From: Candidatus Moraniibacteriota bacterium
Lineage (GTDB): Bacteria; Patescibacteriota; Minisyncoccia; Moranbacterales; UBA1568
Direction of reading: 5' to 3'
DNA length: 64,000 bases
Assembly (NCBI GenBank): GCA_017983435.1
Contig: JAGOBM010000002.1
Location: 33,414-97,413, forward strand
Shown here: positions 3,657 to 52,942 of the stretch, in pieces
Position numbering within the stretch: position 1 is the stretch's first letter
How the letters are laid out: each line of letters starts with the position of its first letter
Made by a program: the position numbers and the translations under genes
Notes under the pieces: model-generated
Told to the model about the DNA's origin: nothing
Seen by the model: the letters and a program-made list of their open reading frames with translations, nothing else
Database searches by the model: none

Positions 3657-4520
3657 ATGATCGACAAAAAGCTCTATGATATGCCGCATGGTACGGATAT
3701 CGCTTGGTGCCAGGCCTGCGGGAACTTCCCTATCCTGACTATCGTGAAGAGCGCGCTTGCGGAGCTCGATATCCTGCCTGGATCCGTCGTCATGACTTCC
3801 GGTATCGGACAGGCTGCCAAGACCCCGCACTATCTGCACCTCAATTATTTCAACGGTCTGCATGGCCGGGCGCTCGGACCGGCGATGGCGATCAAGGCGG
3901 CGAGCCCGCAGCTGACGGTTATCGCCGAGAGCGGAGACGGCGATACCTACGGTGAGGGAGGCAATCATTTCATGCACACTATCCGCCGCAATCCGGATAT
4001 CACGAATATCGTTCACAACAACATGATCTACGGTTTGACCAAGGGGCAGGCATCGCCGACCTCAGAGAAGGGCCTGGTGACGCCGCTTCAGCCGGGAGGG
4101 GTGATTCTGGAGCCGTTCAATCCGATTCCGGTCGCGCTCTCACTCGGGGCGACCTTCGTCGCGCGTGCCTATGCGGGCAATATCCCGCAGGCGGTCGCGA
4201 TCGTGAAGGAAGCGATACAGCATAAGGGGTATGCACTCGTCGATATTTTCCAGCCCTGCGTCGTCTTCAACAAGCAGAATACCTATCAGTGGTTCATGGA
4301 ACACACCTATCTGCTCGGAGAAGAGCATGATGCGACCGATCGCGCCCTGGCCTGGAAGCTTGGTATGGATCAGGATCGGCTCGCACTCGGCGTCATCTAT
4401 CGGGAGACGGGACGACCGACCTATGAGGCACAGGTCCGTACGGGATCGGATATGCTGTTTGGACGCGAGCGCGATACCGCGCAGGTCCGGGCCCTGGTCG
4501 ATTCGTATACGAAGAAGTGA
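3657..4520 (+). CDS. korB: 2-oxoacid:ferredoxin oxidoreductase beta subunit (TPP-binding)
   Basis: CQACGNFPIL...SGIGQAAKTPHYL...GDGDTYGEGGNHF is a TPP/PFOR beta-domain pattern. The ORF begins with TTG at 3636, and the first ATG is at 3657. Confidence 0.85.
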   Translation: MIDKKLYDMPHGTDIAWCQACGNFPILTIVKSALAELDILPGSVVMTSGIGQAAKTPHYLHLNYFNGLHGRALGPAMAIKAASPQLTVIAESGDGDTYGEGGNHFMHTIRRNPDITNIVHNNMIYGLTKGQASPTSEKGLVTPLQPGGVILEPFNPIPVALSLGATFVARAYAGNIPQAVAIVKEAIQHKGYALVDIFQPCVVFNKQNTYQWFMEHTYLLGEEHDATDRALAWKLGMDQDRLALGVIYRETGRPTYEAQVRTGSDMLFGRERDTAQVRALVDSYTKK

Positions 4521-4917: not shown

Positions 4918-4929
4918 ACAAAGATAGGG

Positions 4930-5038
4930 AGAATATGGAATAGAGTATAGAGAATAAAGGTTTCTGAAACAATAACCCTCCATTGCGGAGGATTATTGTT
5001 TTTCTTTTCTGTATTCCTTATTCTACATTCTCTATTCT
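4930..5038. repeat. GAATA-rich inverted-repeat element (arms 4930-4956 and 5012-5038) flanking a CCTCC-ATTGC-GGAGG hairpin
   Basis: The arms AGAATATGGAATAGAGTATAGAGAATA and TATTCCTTATTCTACATTCTCTATTCT belong to the same family as elements at eight other loci listed in the findings. It is intercistronic between fdx and sufT. Confidence 0.6.
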
Positions 5039-5315: not shown

Positions 5316-5684
5316 CTATTCTTGTTTACTGTTTACTGCTTTGCTGAATGTTTCCAGGGAGAGGAGGGCACACTTCAAGCGATTCGGAGAGAGCGAGACT
5401 CCTAGTAGAGCGAGGAGACCGTCTGTGTCGAAAGTGCTGGCTTCCGCAATCGTCTTTCCTTTCACGAATTCGGAGAGGAGCGACGCGCTCGCCTGTGAAA
5501 TAGCGCATCCTGAACCGGAAAACTTCACATCGGCAATAATACCATTTTTCACGGAAAGCTGCATCTCAAGCCGATCACCGCAGGTCGGATTGTTGGCCGC
5601 AGCCCGGTGCGTCGGCGCCTTCAGCACGCCCTGATTGCGAGGGTTGCGATAGTGGTCGAGGATGAGGTCTTGGTACAGGCTCAT
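5316..5684 (-). CDS. sufU: SUF FeS cluster scaffold/sulfur-transfer protein SufU (NifU/IscU-like)
   Basis: NPTCGDRLEM...FSGSGCAISQAS...RLKCALL shows the three conserved Cys of SufU/IscU. Confidence 0.8.
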   Translation of the reverse strand: MSLYQDLILDHYRNPRNQGVLKAPTHRAAANNPTCGDRLEMQLSVKNGIIADVKFSGSGCAISQASASLLSEFVKGKTIAEASTFDTDGLLALLGVSLSPNRLKCALLSLETFSKAVNSKQE

Positions 5685-18286: not shown

Positions 18287-18676
18287 TAGTGGAGTTGATG
18301 GGAATTGCACCCATGTCCAGTCACGTTTTTCCAAAATATTCTACAAGCGTAGTCTGCTTTAGGTCCCTTCCTCTCTATGAAACAGACGAAAGAGAGCGGA
18401 AGACTGGTCTTCTGCAAAAGGCGATCGGAGGAGAAAGACGAGAAGAAAATCTCCGGACCTTCCCGAAGTATGACACCGGCGGTTCTCTATCGGGAGTCGA
18501 GGAGCCGATGGTCCGCGCGAATTAGGCGCGGGCGAAAGCGAAAGACGGAGCGAACGCCGAAGCGAACGTGGCCTTGGCCTTTGGGATGAAGTTTGCACTT
18601 ATCGGTTGATGGAAGTTTTTACGATCGTACCATCATGATCGGCTTGCCTATTTTGAAAGTACGCCCTGTCGAGTCT
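18287..18676 (-). ncRNA. ssrA: tmRNA (transfer-messenger RNA, SsrA)
   Basis: The minus-strand 5-prime end GGGGUUGUUUAGACUCGACAGGG and 3-prime end GGACAUGGGUGCAAUUCCCAUCAACUCCA(CUA) closely parallel E. coli GGGGCUGAUUCUGGAUUCGACGGG...GGACGCGGGUUCAACUCCCGCCAGCUCCACCA. The acceptor stem GGGGUUG/CAACUCC keeps the G3:U wobble. A resume-codon context UAAGU-GCA-AAC and an Ala-rich tag frame ending in UAA lie on plus 18522-18596. The gene is directly downstream of smpB. Confidence 0.8.
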
Positions 18677-18772
18677 AAACAACCCCATACCATCAAGGAT
18701 GATGGAAATTCCAAATTCCAAAGCCCAAATTCCCAGCGGAATTGTAGAGTTTGGATCTTAGAATCTGAAGAA

Positions 18773-19222
18773 CTACCGGTGATCCCTCATCGCTCGCTCG
18801 ATACGCCGCTTCGCTTCCCGTTCACCGATATCGGAACGCTTGTCATACTCCTTTTTTCCCTTTGCTAGAGCGAATTCGAGCTTCACAAGTTGTTTCTGAG
18901 TATACAATCGAATAGGGACCAATGTCAAGCCTTGGACGCGGGATTTTCCAATCAGGGAGCGGATTTCCGAGCGATGGAGGAGGAGCTTGCGCGAACGGGT
19001 ATCCTCATGCTTCGTGTCTTTGTGAGCGTGAGCGTAGCGCGGAATCAGGGCATTGGTCAGGAAGAGCTCATTGCCACGGGCCGTCACAAAGGCTCCTTTG
19101 AGGCTGACGTGGCCGGTTTTGACTGACTTCACCTCGCTGCCGGACAGGACGATGCCCGCCACATACCGATCGAGGAGGGCGTAATCATAGGAAGCTCTGC
19201 GATTGAAAGCGAGATCCTTCAT
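18773..19222 (-). CDS. smpB: SsrA-binding protein SmpB
   Basis: NRRASYDYALLDRYVAGIVLSGSEVKS...GLTLVPIRLY match the SmpB consensus. Confidence 0.9.
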   Translation of the reverse strand: MKDLAFNRRASYDYALLDRYVAGIVLSGSEVKSVKTGHVSLKGAFVTARGNELFLTNALIPRYAHAHKDTKHEDTRSRKLLLHRSEIRSLIGKSRVQGLTLVPIRLYTQKQLVKLEFALAKGKKEYDKRSDIGEREAKRRIERAMRDHR

Positions 19223-20542: not shown

Positions 20543-20884
20543 ATGACTCTGGAGCAGAATCATCCGAATCTGAAAAAACTCTTGGTATTCTTTCTGGTAG
20601 TGTTCGTAATCCTGGTCGGATTGGCCGGGTTGAAAGTGTATCTCGATGTATCGAAGTCGCCAGAGACGCCGGTGATGCAGGATGGCGGAGCACCTACGGG
20701 TCGTCTGACTGAGGCGGATATAGAGCAGCAGCTTGAAGCTTTGAATGTCGGAGATGATCCGAATAAGCACCCAACCGCGGCGGAAATGGAGAAACAGCTT
20801 GAAACCTTGAATGCTGGAGATGATACCGCCAAGCGCCCGACGGAAGCAGAAATCAGACAACAGCTTGAAGCTTTGAATCAGTAG
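20543..20884 (+). CDS. Small N-terminally membrane-anchored protein with 22-aa tandem repeats (EADIEQQLEALNVGDDPNKHPT)
   Basis: It has one TM helix followed by two and a half copies of a 22-aa acidic helical repeat. Confidence 0.6.
   Translation: MTLEQNHPNLKKLLVFFLVVFVILVGLAGLKVYLDVSKSPETPVMQDGGAPTGRLTEADIEQQLEALNVGDDPNKHPTAAEMEKQLETLNAGDDTAKRPTEAEIRQQLEALNQ
20711..20881 (+). repeat. Tandem 66-bp coding repeat, about 2.6 copies
   Basis: Units at 20711-20776, 20777-20842 and 20843-20881 have near-identical cores, CAGCTTGAAGCTTTGAATG and CAGCTTGAAACCTTGAATG. Confidence 0.7.
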
Positions 20885-21682: not shown

Positions 21683-23359
21683 TTGGAAGAGACTTCCCTA
21701 TTCGAAGTTTCACTGCCGGGTATGAAAACAACTCTAGCGCAAGCGATACAGGGAGCGATCGAGGGATTGATCCGGACGGGTCAGCTGCCTCTATTCGATC
21801 TGCCTTGCATCCAGGTGGAGCGTCCGAAGGATGAACAGTTCGGCGAATATACGTCGAATATCGCTTTGATCGCAGCCAAAATAGTCGGCAAGAATCCGAG
21901 AGAATTGGCGGAGCTGATCAAAGAACAATTAACAATTAACAATCAACAAGAAACATTCTTCGAAAAAATCGAAGTCGCTGGTCCGGGGCATCTCAATCTC
22001 TATCTGGCGCAGTCGGTACTCGGCGGTGTCGTGGAAACTATCGCAGCGCGACAGGATCAGTACGGGGCATCAGATCAGGGAGCAGGCCAGTCCGTGAACA
22101 ACGAATTCGTCTCGGCCAATCCGACCGGCCCGCTGCATCTCGGCAATGGCCGCGGGGGATTCTTTGGCGATACGCTCTCGCACATCCTGCGCAAGGCGGG
22201 ATACGCCGTAACGAATGAATACTATGTGAACGATGCCGGCGAGCAAGTGCTGAAGCTCGGGCATAGCGTCCTCAAGGACGAGGAGGCGGTATATGGAGGA
22301 GAATATATTGAAACGCTCCATGAGCGTTTCAAACAACAAACAACAAACAACAAACAACAAGATGGGGAAGGTGTAGTGAGGGAAACAGGCGAGTGGGCGG
22401 CGGAATATATTCTCACACATTTCATCCAGCCGACGCTCAAGGATCAGATGCGGATTACGTTCGATGTCTTCACTTCGGAAAAGCAAGAAATAATCGAGCG
22501 TGGGTATGTCGAGAAAGCCCTGGAGATTTTCAAGGAGAAGCAGCTTTCGTTCGAGACGGACGGCGCACTCTGGCTCAAGACGACCGCTTTCGGCGATGAC
22601 AAAGATCGAGTGCTCGTGAAGGGCGATGGGACGAAGACATACTTCGCGTCCGATTGCGGCTATATCCTCTCCAAGATGGAGCGCGGCTTTACACGGCTTA
22701 TCCTCACGCTCGGAGCGGATCATCACGGCTATCGGGCCCGGATCGAAGCAGCAGCACAGGCGCTCGGATTTGTCGGCCGTTTCGATTTTGTCTTCGTCCA
22801 GCTGGTCCGCCTCATGAAAGACGGCCAGGAAGTGCGGATGAGCAAGCGGGCGGGCAATGTCGTCTCGATCGACGAGCTGATCGAGCGGGTCGGACCGGAT
22901 GTCGCACGCTTCTTCTTTCTCGTGTACAGCCCCGATACGCATATGAACTTTGATCTCGGACTGGCAGAAGAGCGGTCACAGAAGAACCCGGTCTACTATG
23001 TGCAGTACGCGCATGCTCGGCTGGCCAGCGTGCTAGCCAAAGCGGCGGAGGCCGGACTCGATCCGGATCGCGGCGATGTCACTCTGCTCCAGGACCCGAA
23101 GGAGCGCCTGCTCCTCGCTGAGCTCCTCTCATTCCCGGATTTGATCTTGGATACGGCCGAGGATTATGCCGTCCATCGGCTGCCTCAGTATGCTATCCGT
23201 CTGGCTGACCGGCTGCACTCTTTCTATGATGCCTGCCGGGTCATCGATACCGAACAGCCAGCGATGTCTGAGGCTCGCCTGAGGCTCGTGAAAAGTGCTA
23301 AAATAGTCTTGAGTGAGACACTTCGTCTCATAGGTGTTACTGCTCCGGAAAAGATGTAG
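21683..23359 (+). CDS. argS: Arginyl-tRNA synthetase
   Basis: SANPTGPLHLGNGRGG is the HIGH-region variant, and MSKRAGNVV the KMSK variant. It contains two in-frame simple-sequence stretches (INNQQ; QQTTNNKQQ). Confidence 0.9.
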   Translation: MEETSLFEVSLPGMKTTLAQAIQGAIEGLIRTGQLPLFDLPCIQVERPKDEQFGEYTSNIALIAAKIVGKNPRELAELIKEQLTINNQQETFFEKIEVAGPGHLNLYLAQSVLGGVVETIAARQDQYGASDQGAGQSVNNEFVSANPTGPLHLGNGRGGFFGDTLSHILRKAGYAVTNEYYVNDAGEQVLKLGHSVLKDEEAVYGGEYIETLHERFKQQTTNNKQQDGEGVVRETGEWAAEYILTHFIQPTLKDQMRITFDVFTSEKQEIIERGYVEKALEIFKEKQLSFETDGALWLKTTAFGDDKDRVLVKGDGTKTYFASDCGYILSKMERGFTRLILTLGADHHGYRARIEAAAQALGFVGRFDFVFVQLVRLMKDGQEVRMSKRAGNVVSIDELIERVGPDVARFFFLVYSPDTHMNFDLGLAEERSQKNPVYYVQYAHARLASVLAKAAEAGLDPDRGDVTLLQDPKERLLLAELLSFPDLILDTAEDYAVHRLPQYAIRLADRLHSFYDACRVIDTEQPAMSEARLRLVKSAKIVLSETLRLIGVTAPEKM

Positions 23360-29006: not shown

Positions 29007-29037
29007 GATATTCAATATTCCATATTCTCTATTCTTC
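29007..29037. repeat. GAATA-family repeat element (single arm, reverse orientation)
   Basis: GATATTCAATATTCCATATTCTCTATTCTTC lies between the ileS stop and the recO start. Confidence 0.55.
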
Positions 29038-29042
29038 TACCA

Positions 29043-29765
29043 ATGGAACTCCGCTATACCGCTATCGTGCTCAAGAAGAAAGAGGTCGGTGAAACCGATC
29101 GCTTGTATACGCTGTACACCGAAGAGCAGGGCAAGGTGCGGGTGGTCGCCAAGGGTGTGCGCAAGCCGGAAGCCAAGCTGGCGAGCCAGCTCGAGACGCT
29201 CACCTACGGCCTCGTCATCGTCGTGAAGGGCCGGGGCATGGGCAAGATCGCTGGCGCAGTGGCGGAAGATTTCTTCCCGCAGCTGCGGAATGATTTCGAT
29301 ATCCTGAAACGTATCCTGGAATCCATCAGTGTCTTCGAACGGCTTGTCGATCTGGATGAACCGGATAGTCGGCTCTTTGGATTGCTCAAGACCTATCTCA
29401 GTCTGGCAGAAGCCCTGGTGCGCGATGGCCAGTCGGAAAAAGTCTTCCTGCTTTCCGAAGGATTCCTGTTCCAGTTGTTCGCGCATCTCGGCTATGAAGT
29501 CGAGACAGGCGCTTGCGTCGTGTCTGGAGAGAAGCTCCGCCAGGGCGACCGGCATTTCTTCAGTCCGGGCCAGGGGGGCATGCTATCGGGCGAGCACAGC
29601 GCGCAATCCCGAGGAGCCTTCGCGGTCAGTGAGAATACGATCAAGCTCATCCGGCTTTTCCTTTCCAATCGGTTGGAGCACCTGCCGCGCATCACGGCTG
29701 AGGCCCGGGAGCTGCGTGAACTCCGCCAGGTAGCTGCGAGCTTCCTCCAGTGGATTGTTCGCTAG
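29043..29765 (+). CDS. recO: DNA repair protein RecO
   Basis: MELRYTAIVLKKKEVGETDRLYTLYTEEQGKVRVVAKGVRK matches the RecO N-terminal OB fold. Confidence 0.85.
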   Translation: MELRYTAIVLKKKEVGETDRLYTLYTEEQGKVRVVAKGVRKPEAKLASQLETLTYGLVIVVKGRGMGKIAGAVAEDFFPQLRNDFDILKRILESISVFERLVDLDEPDSRLFGLLKTYLSLAEALVRDGQSEKVFLLSEGFLFQLFAHLGYEVETGACVVSGEKLRQGDRHFFSPGQGGMLSGEHSAQSRGAFAVSENTIKLIRLFLSNRLEHLPRITAEARELRELRQVAASFLQWIVR

Positions 29766-30957: not shown

Positions 30958-33997
<3,040 letters not shown>

Positions 33998-38791: not shown

Positions 38792-38804
38792 TGCTGATTT
38801 TTCC

Positions 38805-38834
38805 CTATTCAATATTCTAAATTCCATATTCTAC
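38805..38834. repeat. GAATA-family repeat element (reverse orientation)
   Basis: CTATTCAATATTCTAAATTCCATATTCTAC lies immediately upstream of the M16 peptidase start. Confidence 0.55.
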
Positions 38835-38838
38835 CCGC

Positions 38839-40107
38839 ATGAAATACCAGAAAACAACCCTCAACAACGGACTGCGCATCATCTTGGCGCCGATGCAGGA
38901 AGCGGAAACAGTGACGGTAATGGTGATGACCGGTGTTGGCTCACGCTACGAGTCGAAGAAGGAAAACGGTATCGCGCACTTCCTCGAGCACATGATGTTT
39001 AAGGGGACGGAGAAGCGGCCGACCGCGCACGATATCTCGAAGGAACTCGACGGGATCGGAGCGGAGTACAATGCTTTCACCGGTAAGGAATATACCGGTT
39101 ACTATGCCAAGGTAGCGGCGACGCACGCCGAGACCGCGCTCGATGTGGTGAGCGATATCTTCATGAATGCCAAGCTCGAGCAGGCGGAAATCAACCGGGA
39201 GCGGGGGACTATTCTCCAGGAGCTCAACATGTATGAGGACATGCCGATGCGGCATATCAATGACCTCTGGGAGATGCATCTTTACGGGGATCATCCGCTC
39301 GGCTGGGAGATCGTCGGGACCAAGGAGAATATCGGATCTTTCAAACGGGCTGATTTCGTGAAATATCTGCGGCGCGGATACGTATCGGAAAACGTCGTGG
39401 TCGGTATCGCGGGCAACTTCGATTCGAAGAAGATGAAAAAGGAAATCGAGGCGCGCTTCGGTCATATCGGCCATGGCAAGAAGCCGGTGTCGAAGAAAGC
39501 CAATGACAAACAGTCGGCGCCCGGGCTCTTCATCCAGACCAAGAAGACCGATCAGACACATATGATACTCGGCGTGCGTGCCTATGATATGTGGAACCAG
39601 GACCGTTTCGCGCTGTCGGTGCTCGCGACGCTCCTCGGCGGCGGTATGTCGAGCCGACTCTTCATCCAGGTGCGGGAACGCCGCGGACTAGCGTACAGCG
39701 TGCATACGGGAGTCGATACCTATATCGATGCCGGTTATCTCGCGACCCAGGTCGGCGTGGAGCACAAGAATCTCGAAGAGACCATCCGGGTGATCCTCGA
39801 TGAATACAAGAAGATCGCGACTGAAAAAGTGGACAAAGAAGAGCTTGCCAAAGCGAAAGAATATATCAAAGGCAAGATCGCTATGGGCTTCGAAGGTTCG
39901 GATGATGTGATCGAGTACCTGGTGACGCAGGAGGTCTCCCGCGGGGAGGTGGTGCTGCCGAAGGAGAAGATGAAGCAGATCGACCGGGTGACCGCCGATG
40001 ATATCCTGCGGGTGGCTCAGGATATATTCGTCAACAAGAAGCTCAACCTGACCATCATCGGTCCGCATACGAATCCGAAGAAACTTGAGAAACTCTTGAC
40101 GTTCTAA
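38839..40107 (+). CDS. M16-family zinc peptidase (insulinase-like)
   Basis: HFLEHMMFKGT is the inverted HxxEH zinc motif, and ...EY... carries the second Glu ligand. Confidence 0.85.
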   Translation: MKYQKTTLNNGLRIILAPMQEAETVTVMVMTGVGSRYESKKENGIAHFLEHMMFKGTEKRPTAHDISKELDGIGAEYNAFTGKEYTGYYAKVAATHAETALDVVSDIFMNAKLEQAEINRERGTILQELNMYEDMPMRHINDLWEMHLYGDHPLGWEIVGTKENIGSFKRADFVKYLRRGYVSENVVVGIAGNFDSKKMKKEIEARFGHIGHGKKPVSKKANDKQSAPGLFIQTKKTDQTHMILGVRAYDMWNQDRFALSVLATLLGGGMSSRLFIQVRERRGLAYSVHTGVDTYIDAGYLATQVGVEHKNLEETIRVILDEYKKIATEKVDKEELAKAKEYIKGKIAMGFEGSDDVIEYLVTQEVSRGEVVLPKEKMKQIDRVTADDILRVAQDIFVNKKLNLTIIGPHTNPKKLEKLLTF

Positions 40108-41286: not shown

Positions 41287-41320
41287 AATAGAATATCGAA
41301 TATTGAATAGAGAATATGGA
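41285..41320 (+). repeat. GAATA-family repeat element overlapping the rsmI start codon
   Basis: AGAATAGAATATCGAATATTGAATAGAGAATATGGA. The ATG of rsmI lies inside the motif. Confidence 0.55.
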
Positions 41321-41996
41321 ACAAGAAAGAATTGGAACCCTATATATCGTCGCGACCCCTATCGGCAATCTGGGGGATATCACGCTGCGCGCGCTCGAGA
41401 CGCTCAAAGCGGTCGACGCGGTGCTCTCCGAAGATACCCGGGTAACCGGGAAGCTCCTGATGCATTATGAAATCAAGAAATCACTCATCTCGTGTCATGA
41501 ACACACGGATGATACGAAACTCGGGCAGATCGTCGCTCGCCTGACCCGCGGAGAGTCGCTCGCTTTCGTCTCCGATGCTGGGACGCCGGGACTCTCCGAT
41601 CCGGGCAACAAGCTGGTCTCGCTCGCTCTCGCCGCTGGAATCCCGGTCGTGCCGATTCCGGGTGTGTCGGCGCTCGCCGCCATGGTGTCGGTCGCGGGCA
41701 TCGATATGCGCGAGTTCATGTTTCTCGGCTTCCCGCCGCACAAGAAGGGACGTGAGACGTTTTTCAAAAAAGTCGCTGCTACCGAGATACCGGTTGTCTA
41801 CTACGAATCGGTACACCGCGTCGTGAAGAATCTCGAGCTGCTCGAGACGCTTGCTCCCGAGTCCCGAGTCATCATCGGCCGCGAGCTGACCAAGATGTTC
41901 GAAGAAGTTCGCCGCGGCAGCGTGTCCGATATCCTCGCGCACTATCGCGAGCACGAGAGCACAGTCAAAGGGGAATTCGTCGTGATCGTGTATTAA
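41316..41996 (+). CDS. rsmI: 16S rRNA (cytidine1402-2'-O)-methyltransferase
   Basis: GTLYIVATPIGNLGDITLRALETLKAVDAVLSEDTR is the tetrapyrrole-methylase fold of RsmI. Confidence 0.85.
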   Translation: MEQERIGTLYIVATPIGNLGDITLRALETLKAVDAVLSEDTRVTGKLLMHYEIKKSLISCHEHTDDTKLGQIVARLTRGESLAFVSDAGTPGLSDPGNKLVSLALAAGIPVVPIPGVSALAAMVSVAGIDMREFMFLGFPPHKKGRETFFKKVAATEIPVVYYESVHRVVKNLELLETLAPESRVIIGRELTKMFEEVRRGSVSDILAHYREHESTVKGEFVVIVY

Positions 41997-44196: not shown

Positions 44197-45219
44197 ATGT
44201 TCGATGTCCATGCCCATCTGCACGACGAGGCTTTTGTCGGGGATCGTGATGCTACGGTTGATCGGGCGCGGGCCGTCGGGCTGGAGGATATCGTGACGAT
44301 TGGTACGGATCCGGAGGAGAATCGTCGGGCGGTCGCCTGTGCCGAAGCGTATCCTGATGTGTGGGCCAGCGTCGGTCTGCATCCGCATTTCTTTGACGAA
44401 GAATATAGAATATGGAATGAAGAATATGGAGGGAAAATACCAGTACGAAACGAGACAGAAAAAGAGAGTCCTATTCAATATTCAACATTCGATATTCTCT
44501 TCGGAGACAAAGGGCGTATTCGAGAATATGTCGCGCAATTGAGAAAAGTCGCTGAAAGTTCGAGTAAGGTCATAGCTATCGGGGAGTGCGGTCTGGATTA
44601 TTACAGGCGCCAGTCAGCAGATAGCAATCAACAGGAAACGATTACAGAGGAGCAGAAGGCGTTCCAGCGGGAAGGATTTCTGGCGCAGATAGCTATCGCG
44701 GAAGATCTCGGTTTGCCGCTCATCGTCCATACCCGTCCCTCTCTGGGTTCGATGCCCGCCCGCAACGATCCGCAAGCGAAGCGTAGCGATTCGGGCGGAG
44801 ATGCCTATGAAGATGTGTTTCTTATACTAAAATCTAAAATCACTGCCCGTCCGGCAGGCGGGAAAAATCTAAAATCAGTAGTGCTTCACTGTTATATGGG
44901 TGACCTCTCAGTGACGGAAAAATTCCTCAGTTTGCCGGGAGTGCACTTCTCTTTTACCGGCAATATCACCTACAAGGTCAAGGAGGGATCGGATCGCGAT
45001 GAGACGCTCCGGATGATTCCGATCGAGCGGATGCTCTCGGAGACCGATTGCCCGTACCTCGCGCCGGTGCCGTATCGGGGGCAGCGCAATGAGCCGGCCT
45101 ATGTGGCGGAAGTCGTGCGCCGTATCGCTCTCATGCAGCAGATGACGTATACTGAGGCTGAGGAGCAGATCGGGATCAATACCCGACGCGTGTTTCCCCG
45201 TATGTTTGAAACCGTATAA
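44197..45219 (+). CDS. tatD: TatD-family metal-dependent hydrolase (DNase)
   Basis: MFDVHAHL...AIGECGLDYY...HCY...SETDCPY are the TatD motifs. It carries a roughly 35-aa in-frame insertion encoded by a GAATA-family inverted-repeat element. Confidence 0.85.
   Translation: MFDVHAHLHDEAFVGDRDATVDRARAVGLEDIVTIGTDPEENRRAVACAEAYPDVWASVGLHPHFFDEEYRIWNEEYGGKIPVRNETEKESPIQYSTFDILFGDKGRIREYVAQLRKVAESSSKVIAIGECGLDYYRRQSADSNQQETITEEQKAFQREGFLAQIAIAEDLGLPLIVHTRPSLGSMPARNDPQAKRSDSGGDAYEDVFLILKSKITARPAGGKNLKSVVLHCYMGDLSVTEKFLSLPGVHFSFTGNITYKVKEGSDRDETLRMIPIERMLSETDCPYLAPVPYRGQRNEPAYVAEVVRRIALMQQMTYTEAEEQIGINTRRVFPRMFETV
44398..44502. repeat. GAATA-family inverted-repeat element inserted in-frame within tatD
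   Basis: The arms are GAAGAATATAGAATATGGAATGAAGAATATGGAG (44398-44431) and CCTATTCAATATTCAACATTCGATATTCTCTTC (44470-44502). The reading frame is preserved. Confidence 0.65.
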
Positions 45220-49465: not shown

Positions 49466-49541
49466 AAGAATATCGAATATGGAATGTAGAATGTAGACAA
49501 AATACATTTCCCTATATTCTCTATTCGAAATTCTCTATTCT
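49466..49541. repeat. GAATA-family inverted-repeat element between atpA and atpG
   Basis: The arms are GAAGAATATCGAATATGGAATGTAGAATGTAG (49466-49496) and CTATATTCTCTATTCGAAATTCTCTATTCT (49512-49541). Confidence 0.6.
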
Positions 49542-49546
49542 GATTT

Positions 49547-50437
49547 ATGGCGAGTGCACGAGACATCCGAAGACGCATCAAGGGCGTGAAAGCCACCGGG
49601 AAAATCACCCGGGCTATGGAGATGATTTCGGCTGTCAAAATGCGCAAAGCCGTCTCGGCGGTACTCGCGATCCGGCCGTATGCCGAGAGCGTGATCCAGG
49701 TGCTGCACCAGCTCTCGGTGGTCGGGGAGGATCATCCTCTGCTCGCGGTACGCGAGGTGAAGAAGGAGCTCTATGTCGTCATCACATCGAACCGCGGTCT
49801 GTGCGGAGCCTTCAATGCGCAGATCACCAAGCGGGTGCGGCAGATCCTGCGCGAGGATACCGATCGCGAGGCTTCGTTCATCACCATCGGCAAGAAGGGG
49901 GATGCGGCGGTACGGCGGCTCGGAGGCGATATCGTGGCTTCATTCCCGGACGTACTGGGGACCCCGACGGCCGAGCTTATGCGTCCGATCGCCAAGATCC
50001 TGATCGAGGCTTTCGAATCGAAGCAGATCGACCGCGTCGTCATGGTCTATACGGATTTCAAATCCATGCTGTCGCAGGAGGTGAAAGTGCGGGCGCTCCT
50101 GCCGGTGATCGAGAAAGATGTCCAGAAGGCGCTCAATGAGATCGAGCACGGCGCTATCAAGGAGCGGGTGATGCATGCCGAATACGTGATCGAACCTTCA
50201 GCCAAGAAGGTGCTTTGGAAGATGATCCCGCGTCTCCTCGAGATGGAGCTCTACCATGCGGTGCTCGAGAGCAATGCCTCGCAGGAAGCAGCCCGGATGA
50301 TGGCGATGCGCAGCGCGACGGATGCGGGCAAGGAGATGGCTGCTGACCTGACGCTCGCGTACAATCAGATCCGCCAGTCGAAGATCACCCAGGAAATCGC
50401 CGAGCTCTCAGCGGGTATGGCTGCCGTTTCGCGGTAG
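49547..50437 (+). CDS. atpG: F0F1 ATP synthase subunit gamma
   Basis: MASARDIRRRIKGVKATGKITRAMEMISAVKMRKA is the canonical gamma N-terminus. Confidence 0.9.
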   Translation: MASARDIRRRIKGVKATGKITRAMEMISAVKMRKAVSAVLAIRPYAESVIQVLHQLSVVGEDHPLLAVREVKKELYVVITSNRGLCGAFNAQITKRVRQILREDTDREASFITIGKKGDAAVRRLGGDIVASFPDVLGTPTAELMRPIAKILIEAFESKQIDRVVMVYTDFKSMLSQEVKVRALLPVIEKDVQKALNEIEHGAIKERVMHAEYVIEPSAKKVLWKMIPRLLEMELYHAVLESNASQEAARMMAMRSATDAGKEMAADLTLAYNQIRQSKITQEIAELSAGMAAVSR

Positions 50438-50950: not shown

Positions 50951-51478
50951 ATGCCGGAAAAGGCAGCGAAAAATCTGGTAGCGATTCCGAATGAGCGCAT
51001 CGAAAAGCGGATTTTTTGGCTGCGCGGGGAAAAGGTGATGCTTGATGCCGATTTGGCAGAGTTGTATGATGTATTGACCGGAAACCTGAACAAAGCGGTC
51101 AAGCGTAATATCGATCGGTTCCCATCCGATTTTATGTTTCAGTTGAACAAGGCGGAATTTGATGGTTTGATGTTCCAAAATGGAATATCAAAAGGGCGAG
51201 GCGGGAAAAGAAAGCTGCCGTACGCTTTTACCGAGCAGGGTGTGGCGATGCTCTCGAGCGTATTGAAGAGCCAGCGGGCAGTAGCAGTGAATATCCAAAT
51301 TGTCCGGACATTCGTAGAGCTGCGGAAGATGCTCGCAACGCATGAAGGACTGAGGAAGAAGATCGAGGCGATGGAACGGAAGTATGACAAACAGTTCAAG
51401 GCGGTATTCGATGTGTTGCGGCAACTCTTGAAAGAAGAAACGGAGCCGAAACAGAAGATCGGATTTGCTATAAAACAG

Positions 51479-51481
<3 letters not shown>
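50951..51481 (+). CDS. ORF6N-domain (KilA-N-related) DNA-binding protein
   Basis: LRGEKVMLDADLAELYDV...NKAVKRNIDRFPSDFMFQLNKAEF...GKRKLPYAFTEQGVAMLSSVLKSQRAVAVNIQIVRTFVELRK is the characteristic ORF6N signature. Its stop codon lies inside a GAATA-family repeat. Confidence 0.75.

Positions 51482-52942
<1,461 letters not shown>

Follow-up and report, generated by a model that had tools for sequence, protein, structure and literature searches.

An in-frame GAATA heptamer-array insert in the tatD gene of a Candidatus Moranbacteria bacterium

In-frame insertion of a repeat into a bacterial gene has an established precedent in the Rickettsia palindromic elements (RPEs; PMC10969869). RPEs are ~150 bp long and form families with a conserved full-length sequence and a conserved encoded peptide (PMC10969869). 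Contiguous heptamer repeats such as TAACTGA have been described just upstream of start codons in Beggiatoaceae, Cyanobacteria, and Bacteroidetes, where their function is unknown; MacGregor found one indirect repeat among 170 sets (PMC4679880). TTTTGAA/TTCAAAA heptamer repeats of unknown function also lie just upstream of start codons in Nostoc (bioRxiv 10.1101/2022.06.06.494920). Tandem repeats of Borgs create new disordered protein regions (PMC9879509).

Here, we analyzed a GAATA-family insert in the tatD gene of a Candidatus Moranbacteria bacterium, within a 64-kb window (the whole stretch of DNA studied). Its features are listed in Table 1. Like RPEs and in-frame MITEs (ERIC, BOX, and the Anabaena MITEs), the insert is short, A+T-rich, palindromic, dispersed, and in frame in a housekeeping enzyme, and like RPEs it contributes a surface peptide while leaving the fold intact (PMC10969869). 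It has terminal inverted repeats (27-nt arms, 78% complementary; hairpin folding z = −4.3) and dispersed copies (10 arrays at 8 loci), of which those in the unrelated genes tatD and tgt are in frame. Unlike in RPEs, only the 7-nt-periodic arms are shared: there is no common full-length consensus, as the centers are unrelated and single arms occur, and there is no target-site duplication, the CGAAG...CTTCG flanks being inverted and lying in the stem. The family also differs from RPEs in its usual location in the 5′ leader of cistrons and in arms that are conserved as DNA across deep divergence. An earlier, sequence-only reading had described an RPE- or Correia-like insertion; the dispersed, in-frame repeat holds up, whereas a fixed full-length sequence and a target-site duplication are missing.

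The GAATA arrays resemble the TAACTGA, Nostoc, and STRR repeats in being tandem 7-nt units that lie a few nucleotides before starts without a canonical Shine-Dalgarno (SD) sequence and that occasionally occur inside ORFs. Each array holds 4–5 contiguous units (TRF period 7), placement close to start codons is very non-random (chance ~5e-9), and an SD-like tetramer is found in only 3 of 38 genes. Unlike those repeats, which are almost all direct copies of one exact heptamer, the GAATA units have a degenerate seventh base and typically form an inverted pair with a long hairpin, as at half of the loci. The host also differs, being a member of the Patescibacteria, and one translated copy lies mid-domain in an enzyme, not at a protein end. 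A likeness to REP/BIME and other intercistronic stem-loops lies in hairpins at operon cistron boundaries (atpA-atpG and atpG-atpD) that differ between close relatives. Unlike REP/BIME, the GAATA hairpins have no REP consensus, are built from heptamers, and abut the downstream start instead of the upstream stop, and no RAYT was seen in the window. As in Borgs, fast-evolving nucleotide repeats within an ORF give rise to disordered or low-complexity stretches (PMC9879509). The repeats inside Borg ORFs are direct and reportedly have unit lengths divisible by 3, whereas those in tatD are inverted and have a 7-nt unit.

Table 1. Positions of tatD, its variable segments, and the other GAATA arrays in the 64-kb window
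Feature	Position	Strand	Evidence or context
tatD ORF, 340 aa, host of the insert	44197..45219	+	Pfam TatD_DNase, AF2 model, PDB matches
In-frame tatD insert, 35 codons, ~105 nt	44398..44502 as first flagged; insert proper ~44401-44505	+	Motif spacing, G+C, RNA fold
Left arm, GAATATA GAATATG GAATGAA GAATATG, encodes EYRIWNEEY	44401..44428	+	Repeat search; identity to L007 arms
Hairpin center, encodes GGKIPVRNETEKESP	44429..44471	+	Comparison with L007; AF2 pLDDT
Right arm, plus strand TATTCAA TATTCAA CATTCGA TATTCT, encodes IQYSTFDIL	44472..44498	-	Repeat search; 21 base pairs kept in 4/4 orthologues
Small GAATA-type palindrome TATTCGAGAATAT just 3′ of the insert	44517..44529	+	Read from sequence; inside the 148-nt tract without similarity to L002
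Second in-frame insert, G+C-rich hairpin CCGCCCGCAACGATCCGC / GCGTAGCGATTCGGGCGG, encodes PARNDPQAKRSDSGG	44756..44798	+	Arms 18 nt, 78% complementary
Third variable spot, AAAATCN heptamer array, encodes KSKI..NLKS	44829..44877	+	Repeat analysis
Inverted GAATA pair flanking a terminator-like hairpin	4931..5037	.	Minus-strand TATTC arm ends 11 nt before start codon at 4919
Single arm, TATTC on plus strand	29009..29034	-	Ends 8 nt before ATG at 29043
Single arm inside tgt, in frame, encodes ERIENMEYG	33744..33769	+	Array search
Single arm before M16 peptidase	38799..38831	-	Ends 7 nt before start at 38839
GAATA-orientation array containing rsmI-like start codon 41316	41291..41323	+	Absent in L002
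Inverted pair between atpA and atpG	49468..49540	.	Right arm ends 6 nt before atpG ATG at 49547
Inverted pair upstream of atpD	51478..51543	.	Ends 13 nt before ATG at 51557, 4 nt before GTG at 51548

TatD and the anatomy of its insert

The host gene lies in a metG-tatD-atp gene string and encodes a genuine TatD. Its product matches Pfam PF01026 (TatD_DNase) over essentially the full profile (E 2.7e-63, profile positions 1–252 of 253), has a TIM-barrel fold, and carries the HxH, GECGLD, H, H, and D motifs, with the invariant columns H5, H7, E130, H178, H231, and D284 present in the orthologue alignment. The AF2 model of the 340-aa protein has a mean pLDDT of 88 (at least 90 in the barrel), and Foldseek aligns it at TM 0.89 to the solved TatD structures 1j6o, 2gzx, and 1xwy (253–262 aa).

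From the H of HPH to AIGECGLD, the window TatD spans 65 residues. The same spacing is 32 and 30 residues in P0010 and P0013, two close orthologues with an empty site that we read at the DNA level, and ~30–33 in most uninserted TatDs of a 120-protein set. The extra in-frame segment of ~35 codons that the sequence-only reading had proposed is therefore real; its figure of about 25 residues for the uninserted spacing was slightly low. That reading had also translated the peptide, DEEYRIWNEEYGGKIPVRNETEKESPIQYSTFDILFGD, correctly, and its coordinates agree with ours to within one codon. We place the insert proper slightly downstream because E68 (44398–44400) is a conserved native Glu. The insert follows directly on the HPHFFDE strand (HPHFF(D/N)E in related TatDs), at the start of helix α-3.

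Four GAATATN units, a center of ~43–45 nt, and four NATATTC units make up the segment, all in frame, which bears out the two inverted GAATA-family arms described before. G+C is ~33% in the insert against 54% in the window. The sense RNA folds at −26.8 kcal/mol, and none of 200 shuffles was as good; the CGAAG/CTTCG flanks extend the stem. The center contains GAAAAAGA, a motif found ahead of the arrays in tatD of other Moranbacteria; the form GAAAAAGA(A) is common to the window center and to L128, L129, and L130. The heptamer unit cycles through three reading frames, and the encoded pattern is EYxIxNx. The predicted translation of the insert includes the peptides IWNEEYGGK and ESPIQYSTFDILFGDK.

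In the AF2 model, residues 63–77 and 97–121 are helices (pLDDT ~76–97) and the center of the insert falls to pLDDT 48–62. The insert peptide is thus modeled as a partly disordered helix-coil-helix excursion, and it lies in a loop that the fold tolerates. Translational bypass or excision of the insert was also considered and dropped, as nothing calls for it: no in-frame stop occurs, and indels within the insert have lengths divisible by three (e.g., 12 nt).

We also looked for known signals. A promoter scan found no −35/−10 hexamers of the sigma-70 type within tatD. The only terminator-like matches in a scan of the gene are on the minus strand at 44843–44859, outside the GAATA insert. Rfam 15, run over the whole window at the gathering score, returned only a tmRNA at 18287–18686 and no family at the insert.

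Two further spots in tatD vary. Among 20 aligned orthologues, the hairpin insert at 44756–44798 is present only in P0002 and P0024, and its AF2 pLDDT is below 50. The AAAATCN array at 44829–44877 is split by a 21-nt G+C-rich piece with flanking perfect 14-nt direct repeats, AAAATCTAAAATCA; at the same site, L005 and L129 have an uninterrupted TCTAAAA array.

A dispersed family of heptamer arrays at start codons

The insert belongs to a family that recurs throughout the window. With one mismatch allowed, GAATATNGAATAT has 21 matches in the window against 0.24 expected, and none of 50 shuffles contained an array of at least three units, of which the window has 10. Adjacent units vary at the seventh base N and keep the GAATAT core. 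Four copies are paired, with unrelated centers of ~8 to ~50 nt, and four further copies are single arms. No direct flanking repeats that would mark a target-site duplication were found at the window copies or at those of L026, L022, and L046. Many different period-7 arrays occur in the window and its relatives.

At five of the six intergenic loci, the gap between arm and start codon is 6, 7, 8, 11, or 13 nt, and at the sixth the array overlaps the start codon. The copies in tatD and tgt depart from this pattern by lying inside genes. The tgt arm lies within a 16-residue insertion relative to a solved TGT, with the gap exactly there in the 5n6f_A alignment.

Relatives show the same architecture built from other heptamer units, upstream of atpG, atpD, atpA, and tatD in L002, L129, L130, L167, and L128. 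L002, the closest relative (~95% nucleotide identity in the flanks), has an inverted AAACACN/NGTGTTT pair at the atpA-atpG spot, where the aligned flanks are ~87–94% identical, and a different pyrimidine-rich stretch before the M16 peptidase. Upstream of atpD, L167 carries a GAATA-type pair in the corresponding position.

Beyond these genomes, a scan of the genome collection for GAATATNGAATATNGAATA gave at least 120 stretches in many phyla where ~70 are expected by chance under uniform composition. Single matches say little because this count is near chance, so we used only paired inverted arrays. Among the matches listed, 10 of 18 inverted GAATA pairs in other phyla have a long ORF start no more than 20 nt from an arm, compared with 27.6% of random positions (p = 0.011), for pairs that were chosen by a search for GAATAT itself. 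In a metagenome scan, the 21-mer GAAGAATATRGAATATGGRAT from the tatD left arm matched at 36 loci, and tatD was not among them. Judged from their sequences, around ten seem to represent a conserved coding motif without relation to the arrays, EEYRIW[DN]P, presumably archaeal fibrillarin; among the others are further GAATA arrays as well as single, unrelated hits. A word-index protein search with the 44-aa insert peptide for other proteins containing GAATA pairs gave no matches and is uninformative.

Mosaicism of tatD and conservation of the arms

About half of the 120 related TatDs have some insert at the same surface position, and those read at the DNA level are heptamer arrays. The GAATA insert itself occurs at the same codon, in the same orientation and frame and with a diverged center, in TatDs only 66% and 49% identical to that of the window. 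The orthologue comparison thus agrees that the segment is extra relative to many TatDs and coincides with the repeat, and it shows that the segment is not lineage-specific. Distant orthologues that have the segment also have the repeat DNA, so the refuting case named in the earlier reading, the segment in distant taxa lacking such DNA, was not found. At this codon, L128, L129, and L130 have other heptamer arrays, all preceded by TTGAAAAAGAA, and the units differ by 1–2 bases between genomes (TTTTCAA, TTTCAAA, and TATTCAA). Since hairpins built from other heptamers occupy this codon in relatives, the loop is a hotspot across related Moranbacteria.

L002 has a different heptamer array here. The flank is diverged, and the tract 44401–44549 cannot be aligned (148 nt vs 94 nt in L002). 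Codons 68–126 of tatD are 90–94% identical to L001 and 39–49% to L002, while codons 127–183 are 93% identical to L002 and 82% to L001. The gene is a mosaic allele across lineages. A simple lineage-specific insertion is ruled out by these identities and by the insert shared with L004 and L007.

The tatD copy allows a comparison that is impossible for intergenic copies, namely with synonymous sites in the gene that hosts it. We used L007, whose TatD is 49% identical to that of the window. The arms are identical at 51 of 57 positions (89%), including 17 of 19 third codon positions (89%), whereas the rest of tatD is 61% identical (42% at third positions) and the center is 50% identical with a 12-nt in-frame indel. 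The difference between the arms and the rest of the gene is significant for third positions (Fisher p = 5e-5) and for all positions (p = 2.6e-6), and third positions give p = 0.003 with L004. In the left arm the substitutions are non-synonymous, and the third codon positions of the arms are nearly invariant. dN/dS is 0.64 in the insert vs 0.18 elsewhere in tatD, a contrast that rests on 15 substitutions. In these alignments, the nucleotide sequence of the arms is conserved far above that of the host gene.

The hairpin is kept in all four insert-bearing orthologues, with 21 base pairs retained. No compensatory change was found at any of these 21 pairs, as the arms barely vary among the four orthologues; selection on pairing is thus inseparable from selection on the GAATAT motif, gene conversion, or recent lateral spread.

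Competing explanations and what the insert means

The explanation we put first, with about even confidence, is that the tatD segment represents a heptamer-array hairpin module, copied in frame and translated, that works at the nucleic-acid level and is exchanged by recombination. The module would consist of (GAATATN)4, a free center, and (NATATTC)4. Its usual site in this SD-poor Moranbacterium is a cistron leader, with the 3′ arm ending 6–13 nt before the start, and in related genomes equivalent hairpins of other 7-nt units occupy the corresponding boundaries. In tatD, the ribosome would read through the insert and the enzyme would tolerate the helix-coil-helix excursion; the arms would be maintained as nucleic acid (hairpin and/or motif) and not as peptide. 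The insert-bearing allele of ~150 nt would have passed between lineages by homologous recombination. Like its intergenic siblings, the segment may act as an mRNA hairpin (~−27 kcal/mol) on translation or on mRNA processing or stability. Alternatively, gene conversion with those siblings may keep the arms uniform. Any effect at the protein level is probably near neutral. The leader function proposed for the intergenic copies cannot apply literally to the tatD copy because no in-frame internal start codon follows its right arm; in the sequence, the ATG at 44527 lies in another frame.

A classical selfish element of the MITE or RPE type is unlikely but deserves to be weighed. A non-autonomous transposable palindrome would have jumped into tatD and survived only because the site tolerates it, and the arms would be terminal inverted repeats recognized by a transposase. 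The copies are indeed dispersed and A+T-rich with inverted termini, they lie in frame in two unrelated genes (tatD and tgt), P0010 and P0013 provide empty sites, arrays are replaced or absent in a ~95%-identical genome, and in-frame RPEs offer a precedent (PMC10969869). The presence of the GAATAT unit in many phyla would fit horizontal spread. However, no target-site duplications accompany the copies, the CGAAG/CTTCG flanks being part of the palindrome; the copies share neither an internal sequence nor a length, several consist of one arm only, and no transposase was seen in the 64-kb window. Occupation of the same codon, in one orientation and frame, in TatDs 49–66% identical with a diverged center points to age and not to a recent jump. 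A decaying selfish insert would not show arms conserved above synonymous sites, and other heptamer families stand at the same positions in relatives.

It is rather improbable that the arrays are a neutral simple-sequence by-product, turning over by slippage or template switching in A+T-rich stretches in the manner of STRRs, with the inverted layout and the tatD site being accidental and limited only by what is tolerated. The abundance of different period-7 arrays in the window and relatives is what such turnover would leave, as are the identical adjacent units in L116 and L026 and the 1–2-base differences between units at the tatD site. Slippage alone does not give variation at N with a preserved GAATAT core, though, and both arms change together at atpA-atpG (GAATAT in the window vs AAACAC in L002). 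Start-codon placement this far from random and arm conservation over deep divergence also speak against it.

An adaptive protein insertion, in which the helix-loop-helix forms a new TatD surface (e.g., one that binds a partner or nucleic acid) while the repeat in the DNA is only incidental, is very unlikely. The frame is kept in four lineages, AF2 predicts confident helices on both sides of the center, and Borg repeats that create disordered regions offer a parallel (PMC9879509). Yet non-synonymous changes in the left arm with nearly invariant third positions are the opposite of protein-level selection, the raised dN/dS agrees with this, relatives have completely different peptides at the site, and the center is modeled with low confidence. 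An assembly or sequencing artefact, or a tatD pseudogene, is hardly credible: hairpins and repeats can mis-assemble, and two loci have runs of N beside GAATA arrays, but the identical 340-aa protein is found on 4 contigs, an 86%-identical TatD from another sample has the same insert, independent samples share it with substitutions and in-frame indels, and tatD has an unbroken ORF, every catalytic motif, and a confidently modeled fold.

We offer a broader proposal with considerable doubt. Inverted heptamer-array hairpins could form a widespread and so far undescribed class of cis-acting modules, made of RNA (or single-stranded DNA), that stand in for the Shine-Dalgarno region where cistrons begin in SD-poor bacteria, with hosts among Patescibacteria, Bacteroidota, Elusimicrobia, and others. 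A factor measuring 7 nt would read or write the arrays; candidates would be a protein with a cold-shock domain, an S1-like protein, or an activity that adds repeats from a template. The tatD copy would then be a functional intragenic member, serving as an mRNA processing or stability signal or as a translational pause, and not a passenger. If true, this would explain why the units vary between genomes and loci while their positions stay fixed.

Heptamer arrays are a long-noted and unexplained feature of SD-poor bacteria. Arms that exceed the synonymous background of their host gene argue that such arrays may be under sequence or structure constraint. Repeat-derived peptide inserts in the enzymes of streamlined Patescibacteria can be read-through copies of a nucleic-acid element whose normal place would be the translation-start region, so that junk or a transposon scar is too simple a description of them. 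Anyone annotating Moranbacteria genes or predicting structures from them should be prepared for such inserts, which lengthen proteins and introduce low-complexity loops.

Anatomy and structural context of the tatD insert

The tatD gene of the window encodes a 340-amino-acid TatD hydrolase (Pfam PF01026, E 2.7e-63). The same protein sequence occurs on four contigs and has been annotated in a MAG of Candidatus Moranbacteria. The sequence-only reading proposed an in-frame insert in this gene, and we can confirm it. From the H of the HPH motif to AIGECGLD there are 65 residues, versus 30 and 32 in uninserted orthologues read at the DNA level and ~30–33 in most uninserted TatDs of the homologue set; the peptide quoted in that reading is the one encoded in frame. 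The insert begins immediately past the conserved HPHFFDE strand and has a G+C content of ~33%, versus 54% for the window. Its two 27-nt arms are 78% complementary, the right arm being the left-arm heptamer (GAATATN) on the opposite strand. The sense RNA forms a single long hairpin (-26.8 kcal/mol, z = -4.3), equalled by 0/200 shuffles, and the antisense RNA (z = -3.5) and single-stranded DNA (z = -3.1) also fold better than their shuffles. An Rfam search returned no family for the insert, and a promoter and terminator scan of tatD placed neither within it.

Positions of the features described, in the window unless another locus (L-number, DNA from another contig) is named
Feature	Position	Details
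tatD	44197-45219 (+)	
Left arm, tatD insert	44401-44428	GAATATA GAATATG GAATGAA GAATATG
Centre, tatD insert	between arms	43 nt
Right arm, tatD insert	44472-44498	TATTCAA TATTCAA CATTCGA TATTCT
GAATA inverted pairs	4931/5005, 44401/44472, 49468/49515, 51478/51517	four loci
GAATA single arms	29009, 33744, 38799, 41291	four loci
Starts 6, 7, 8, 11 and 13 nt downstream of TATTC-oriented arms, in that order	49547; 38839; 29043; 4919; 51557	atpG; M16 peptidase; ORF; minus-strand ORF; atpD
rsmI-like start codon	41316	
In-frame hairpin in tatD	44756-44798	G+C-rich, PARNDPQAKRSDSGG; shared by the window with TatD orthologues P0002 and P0024 only
AAAATCN array in tatD	44829-44877	interrupted by 21-nt G+C-rich piece bounded by perfect 14-nt direct repeats AAAATCTAAAATCA
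tgt	32864-33997	
GAATA single arm in tgt	33744-33769	translated in frame as ERIENMEYG
Arginyl-tRNA synthetase	21683-23359	
In-frame period-7 array in it	21924-21955	AACAATT x3.7, encodes ..LTINNQQ..
In-frame period-7 array in it	22330-22360	CAAACAA x4.4, encodes ..QQTTNNKQQ..
tmRNA gene	18287-18686 (-)	Rfam 110.8 bits; downstream of smpB
AAATTCC x4 array	18706-18733	between tmRNA gene and smpB
smpB	18773-19222	
Tandem repeat	20729-20878	66-nt unit, 2.3 copies, 77% matches
ORF6N/Rha-like (phage regulatory) gene	50951-51481	176 aa, between atpG and atpD; not in L002 despite synteny; a 97-aa minus-strand ORF lies there instead
rsmI-metG stretch, L002	4810-7793	~3 kb; three ORFs (442, 435, 90 aa; no Pfam); missing from window (junction 41985/41986)
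Diversity-generating-retroelement-like pair, L128	4387-5780	bAvd (weak match) and RVT_1 reverse transcriptase; adjoins rsmI-metG-tatD
Nested inverted pairs, L062 (Phycisphaerae)	5414-5512	GAATA pair within outer pair
Nested inverted pairs, L085 (Sediminibacterium)	3949-4018	GAATA pair within outer pair
N run, L043	1711-1843	133 nt; enclosed by extra 26-bp stem
N run, L107	83-153	71 nt

An AlphaFold2 model (82 sequences) gives a confident barrel, with a mean pLDDT of 88 and a TM of 0.89 on superposition with solved TatDs (253–262 aa). Residues 63–77 and 97–121 are predicted to be helical and residues 78–96 to be coil, with pLDDT down to 48; a second insert, residues 185–200, also falls below 50. 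On this model, the fold tolerates the insert as an excursion at helix alpha-3. Two further in-frame segments of tatD, the G+C-rich hairpin and the interrupted AAAATCN array, also derive from repeats.

Heptamer arrays and start codons

The window has 10 arrays of three or more GAATA-type heptamers, grouped in 8 loci, versus none in 50 shuffles, and the core pattern of the family occurs 21 times versus 0.24 expected. Pair centres are mutually unrelated and ~8 to ~50 nt long, one being a terminator-like hairpin. Numerous other period-7 arrays are also present. The tgt gene is the second enzyme gene of the window with a family member, and its arm coincides exactly with a 16-residue insertion relative to the solved Zymomonas TGT.

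Of the six intergenic loci, five place the end of the TATTC-oriented arm 6, 7, 8, 11 or 13 nt upstream of a start codon; at the sixth, the rsmI-like start codon falls within the array (p ~5e-9 for this placement by a rough binomial). Only 3/38 starts in the window have a Shine-Dalgarno-like tetramer at -22 to -4, and leaders are G-poor. Therefore, to judge from these leaders, the genome appears hardly to use Shine-Dalgarno sites, and initiation appears largely independent of them. A parallel exists in published heptamer repeats that lie close upstream of start codons and still await an explanation; they are described for Beggiatoaceae, Cyanobacteria and Bacteroidetes (PMC4679880) and for Nostoc (bioRxiv 10.1101/2022.06.06.494920).

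Related Moranbacteria contigs carry inverted heptamer-array hairpins at the same cistron boundaries, but their units differ. L002 has AAACACN/NGTGTTT between atpA and atpG, L129 has GATTGCA-type and L130 AATTTTC-type arrays, L167 has a GAATA-type pair upstream of atpD, and L128 and L129 have GATAC-type arrays upstream of tatD. We also looked for three GAATATN units in 185,579 genomes, and the matches listed span many phyla. Among these, single matches are about as many as chance predicts, and inverted pairs of the same architecture occur in Elusimicrobia, Bacillota, Yonathbacteria, Phycisphaerae, Bacteroidota and others. Of the 18 non-redundant pairs among the matches listed, 10 have an arm no more than 20 nt from the start of a long ORF, versus 27.6% of random positions (p = 0.011).

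In L062 and L085, the outer pair belongs to a different heptamer family (of CCGGGAA or GGAACAA type), so that heptamer hairpins are layered, even in a genome of 68% G+C. The N runs of L043 and L107 lie exactly between GAATA arrays and are either hairpin-caused assembly gaps or masked stretches. A metagenome scan with the tatD left-arm 21-mer gave no tatD copy among its matches. At about ten of its loci, in low-G+C contigs (L132, L134, L136, L150, L153, L155, L158, L163–L165), the match falls in a conserved motif of coding sequence, EEYRIW(D/N)P; we rejected these as coincidental and not repeats, the genes presumably being archaeal fibrillarins. A protein search with the insert peptide gave zero matches.

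The same tatD site in other genomes

Roughly half of the best 120 TatD hits have an extra 10–40 residues at exactly this site, including low-complexity peptides such as FSISNFQFSIKSQ, YQIPNTKYQI and NPKPKLQMPNKTQ. Wherever DNA was fetched, these inserts consist of heptamer arrays. L128 has (AATTTCA)4 together with AAAATCN units, L129 has AATCACC and (AATCATC)4, and L130 has (AATTTTC)4. TTGAAAAAGAA precedes the array in all three, and in the window GAAAAAGA lies just 5' of the right arm.

The insert had been proposed to be lineage-specific, which is not borne out. Three further tatD genes carry the GAATA insert at the same codon, orientation and frame, with protein identities to the window of 86% (L001), 66% (L004) and 49% (L007, with different synteny and 45% G+C); L167 tatD has the right arm only. 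The closest relative, L002, with flanking blocks at 94–96% nucleotide identity, has no GAATA array within 20.9 kb; its tatD holds an array of an unrelated type (AAACAC/AAATTCC), and the stretch that cannot be aligned measures 148 nt in the window versus 94 nt in L002. Identities to L001 and L002, respectively, are 96% and 95% for codons 1–67, 90% and 39% for the insert (codons 68–102), 94% and 49% for the following helix (103–126), and 82% and 93% for codons 127–183. This mosaic suggests that the insert travels within a ~150-nt allele exchanged by recombination.

Conservation and origin of the insert

Between the window and L007, the arms are 89% identical (51/57; 17/19 at third codon positions) versus 61% (42% at third positions) for the rest of the gene (Fisher p 2.6e-6 for all positions, 5e-5 for third positions). 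The insert centre is 50% identical over all positions and differs by an in-frame 12-nt indel. Third-position identity with L004 is likewise 84% in the arms versus 50% (p = 0.003). Left-arm differences are non-synonymous or at the degenerate seventh base, and the tatD hairpin has no compensatory base pairs. Against L001, dN/dS is 0.64 for the insert (11 non-synonymous, 4 synonymous changes) versus 0.18 for the rest of the gene. These comparisons indicate that the arms are kept constant at the nucleotide level, through selection or homogenisation, and that the peptide is not.

From the anatomy, conservation and context observed here, we favor, at about even confidence, the reading of the tatD insert as one copy, here translated, of a heptamer-array hairpin module. 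A classical MITE- or RPE-like insertion, as first proposed, agrees with a dispersed family and the in-frame position, and is unlikely. No direct repeats flank the GAATA copies (in tatD, the flanking CGAAG and CTTCG belong to the hairpin stem) and no full-length consensus is shared, so two defining features of such elements (PMC10969869) are absent; the arms are also conserved. A neutral slippage product is less probable again, given the variable seventh base, the change of both arms in step when close relatives are compared, and the bias of the arrays towards start codons. The substitution pattern speaks against an adaptive protein insert, which we consider improbable, and independent assemblies exclude an artefact.

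Palindromic repeats that keep the reading frame (RPE) are already known, as are heptamer repeats close to start codons. In the literature searched, we found no description of the inverted heptamer-array hairpin architecture, of such hairpins in Patescibacteria, or of a copy within an enzyme domain with arms conserved above the gene's synonymous sites. The favored hairpin module would have its normal home in leaders lacking Shine-Dalgarno sites and would have spread by recombination. It would be maintained at the nucleic-acid level, possibly for an effect of the RNA hairpin on translation, processing or stability, or alternatively through gene conversion, with the peptide carried along as a passenger.
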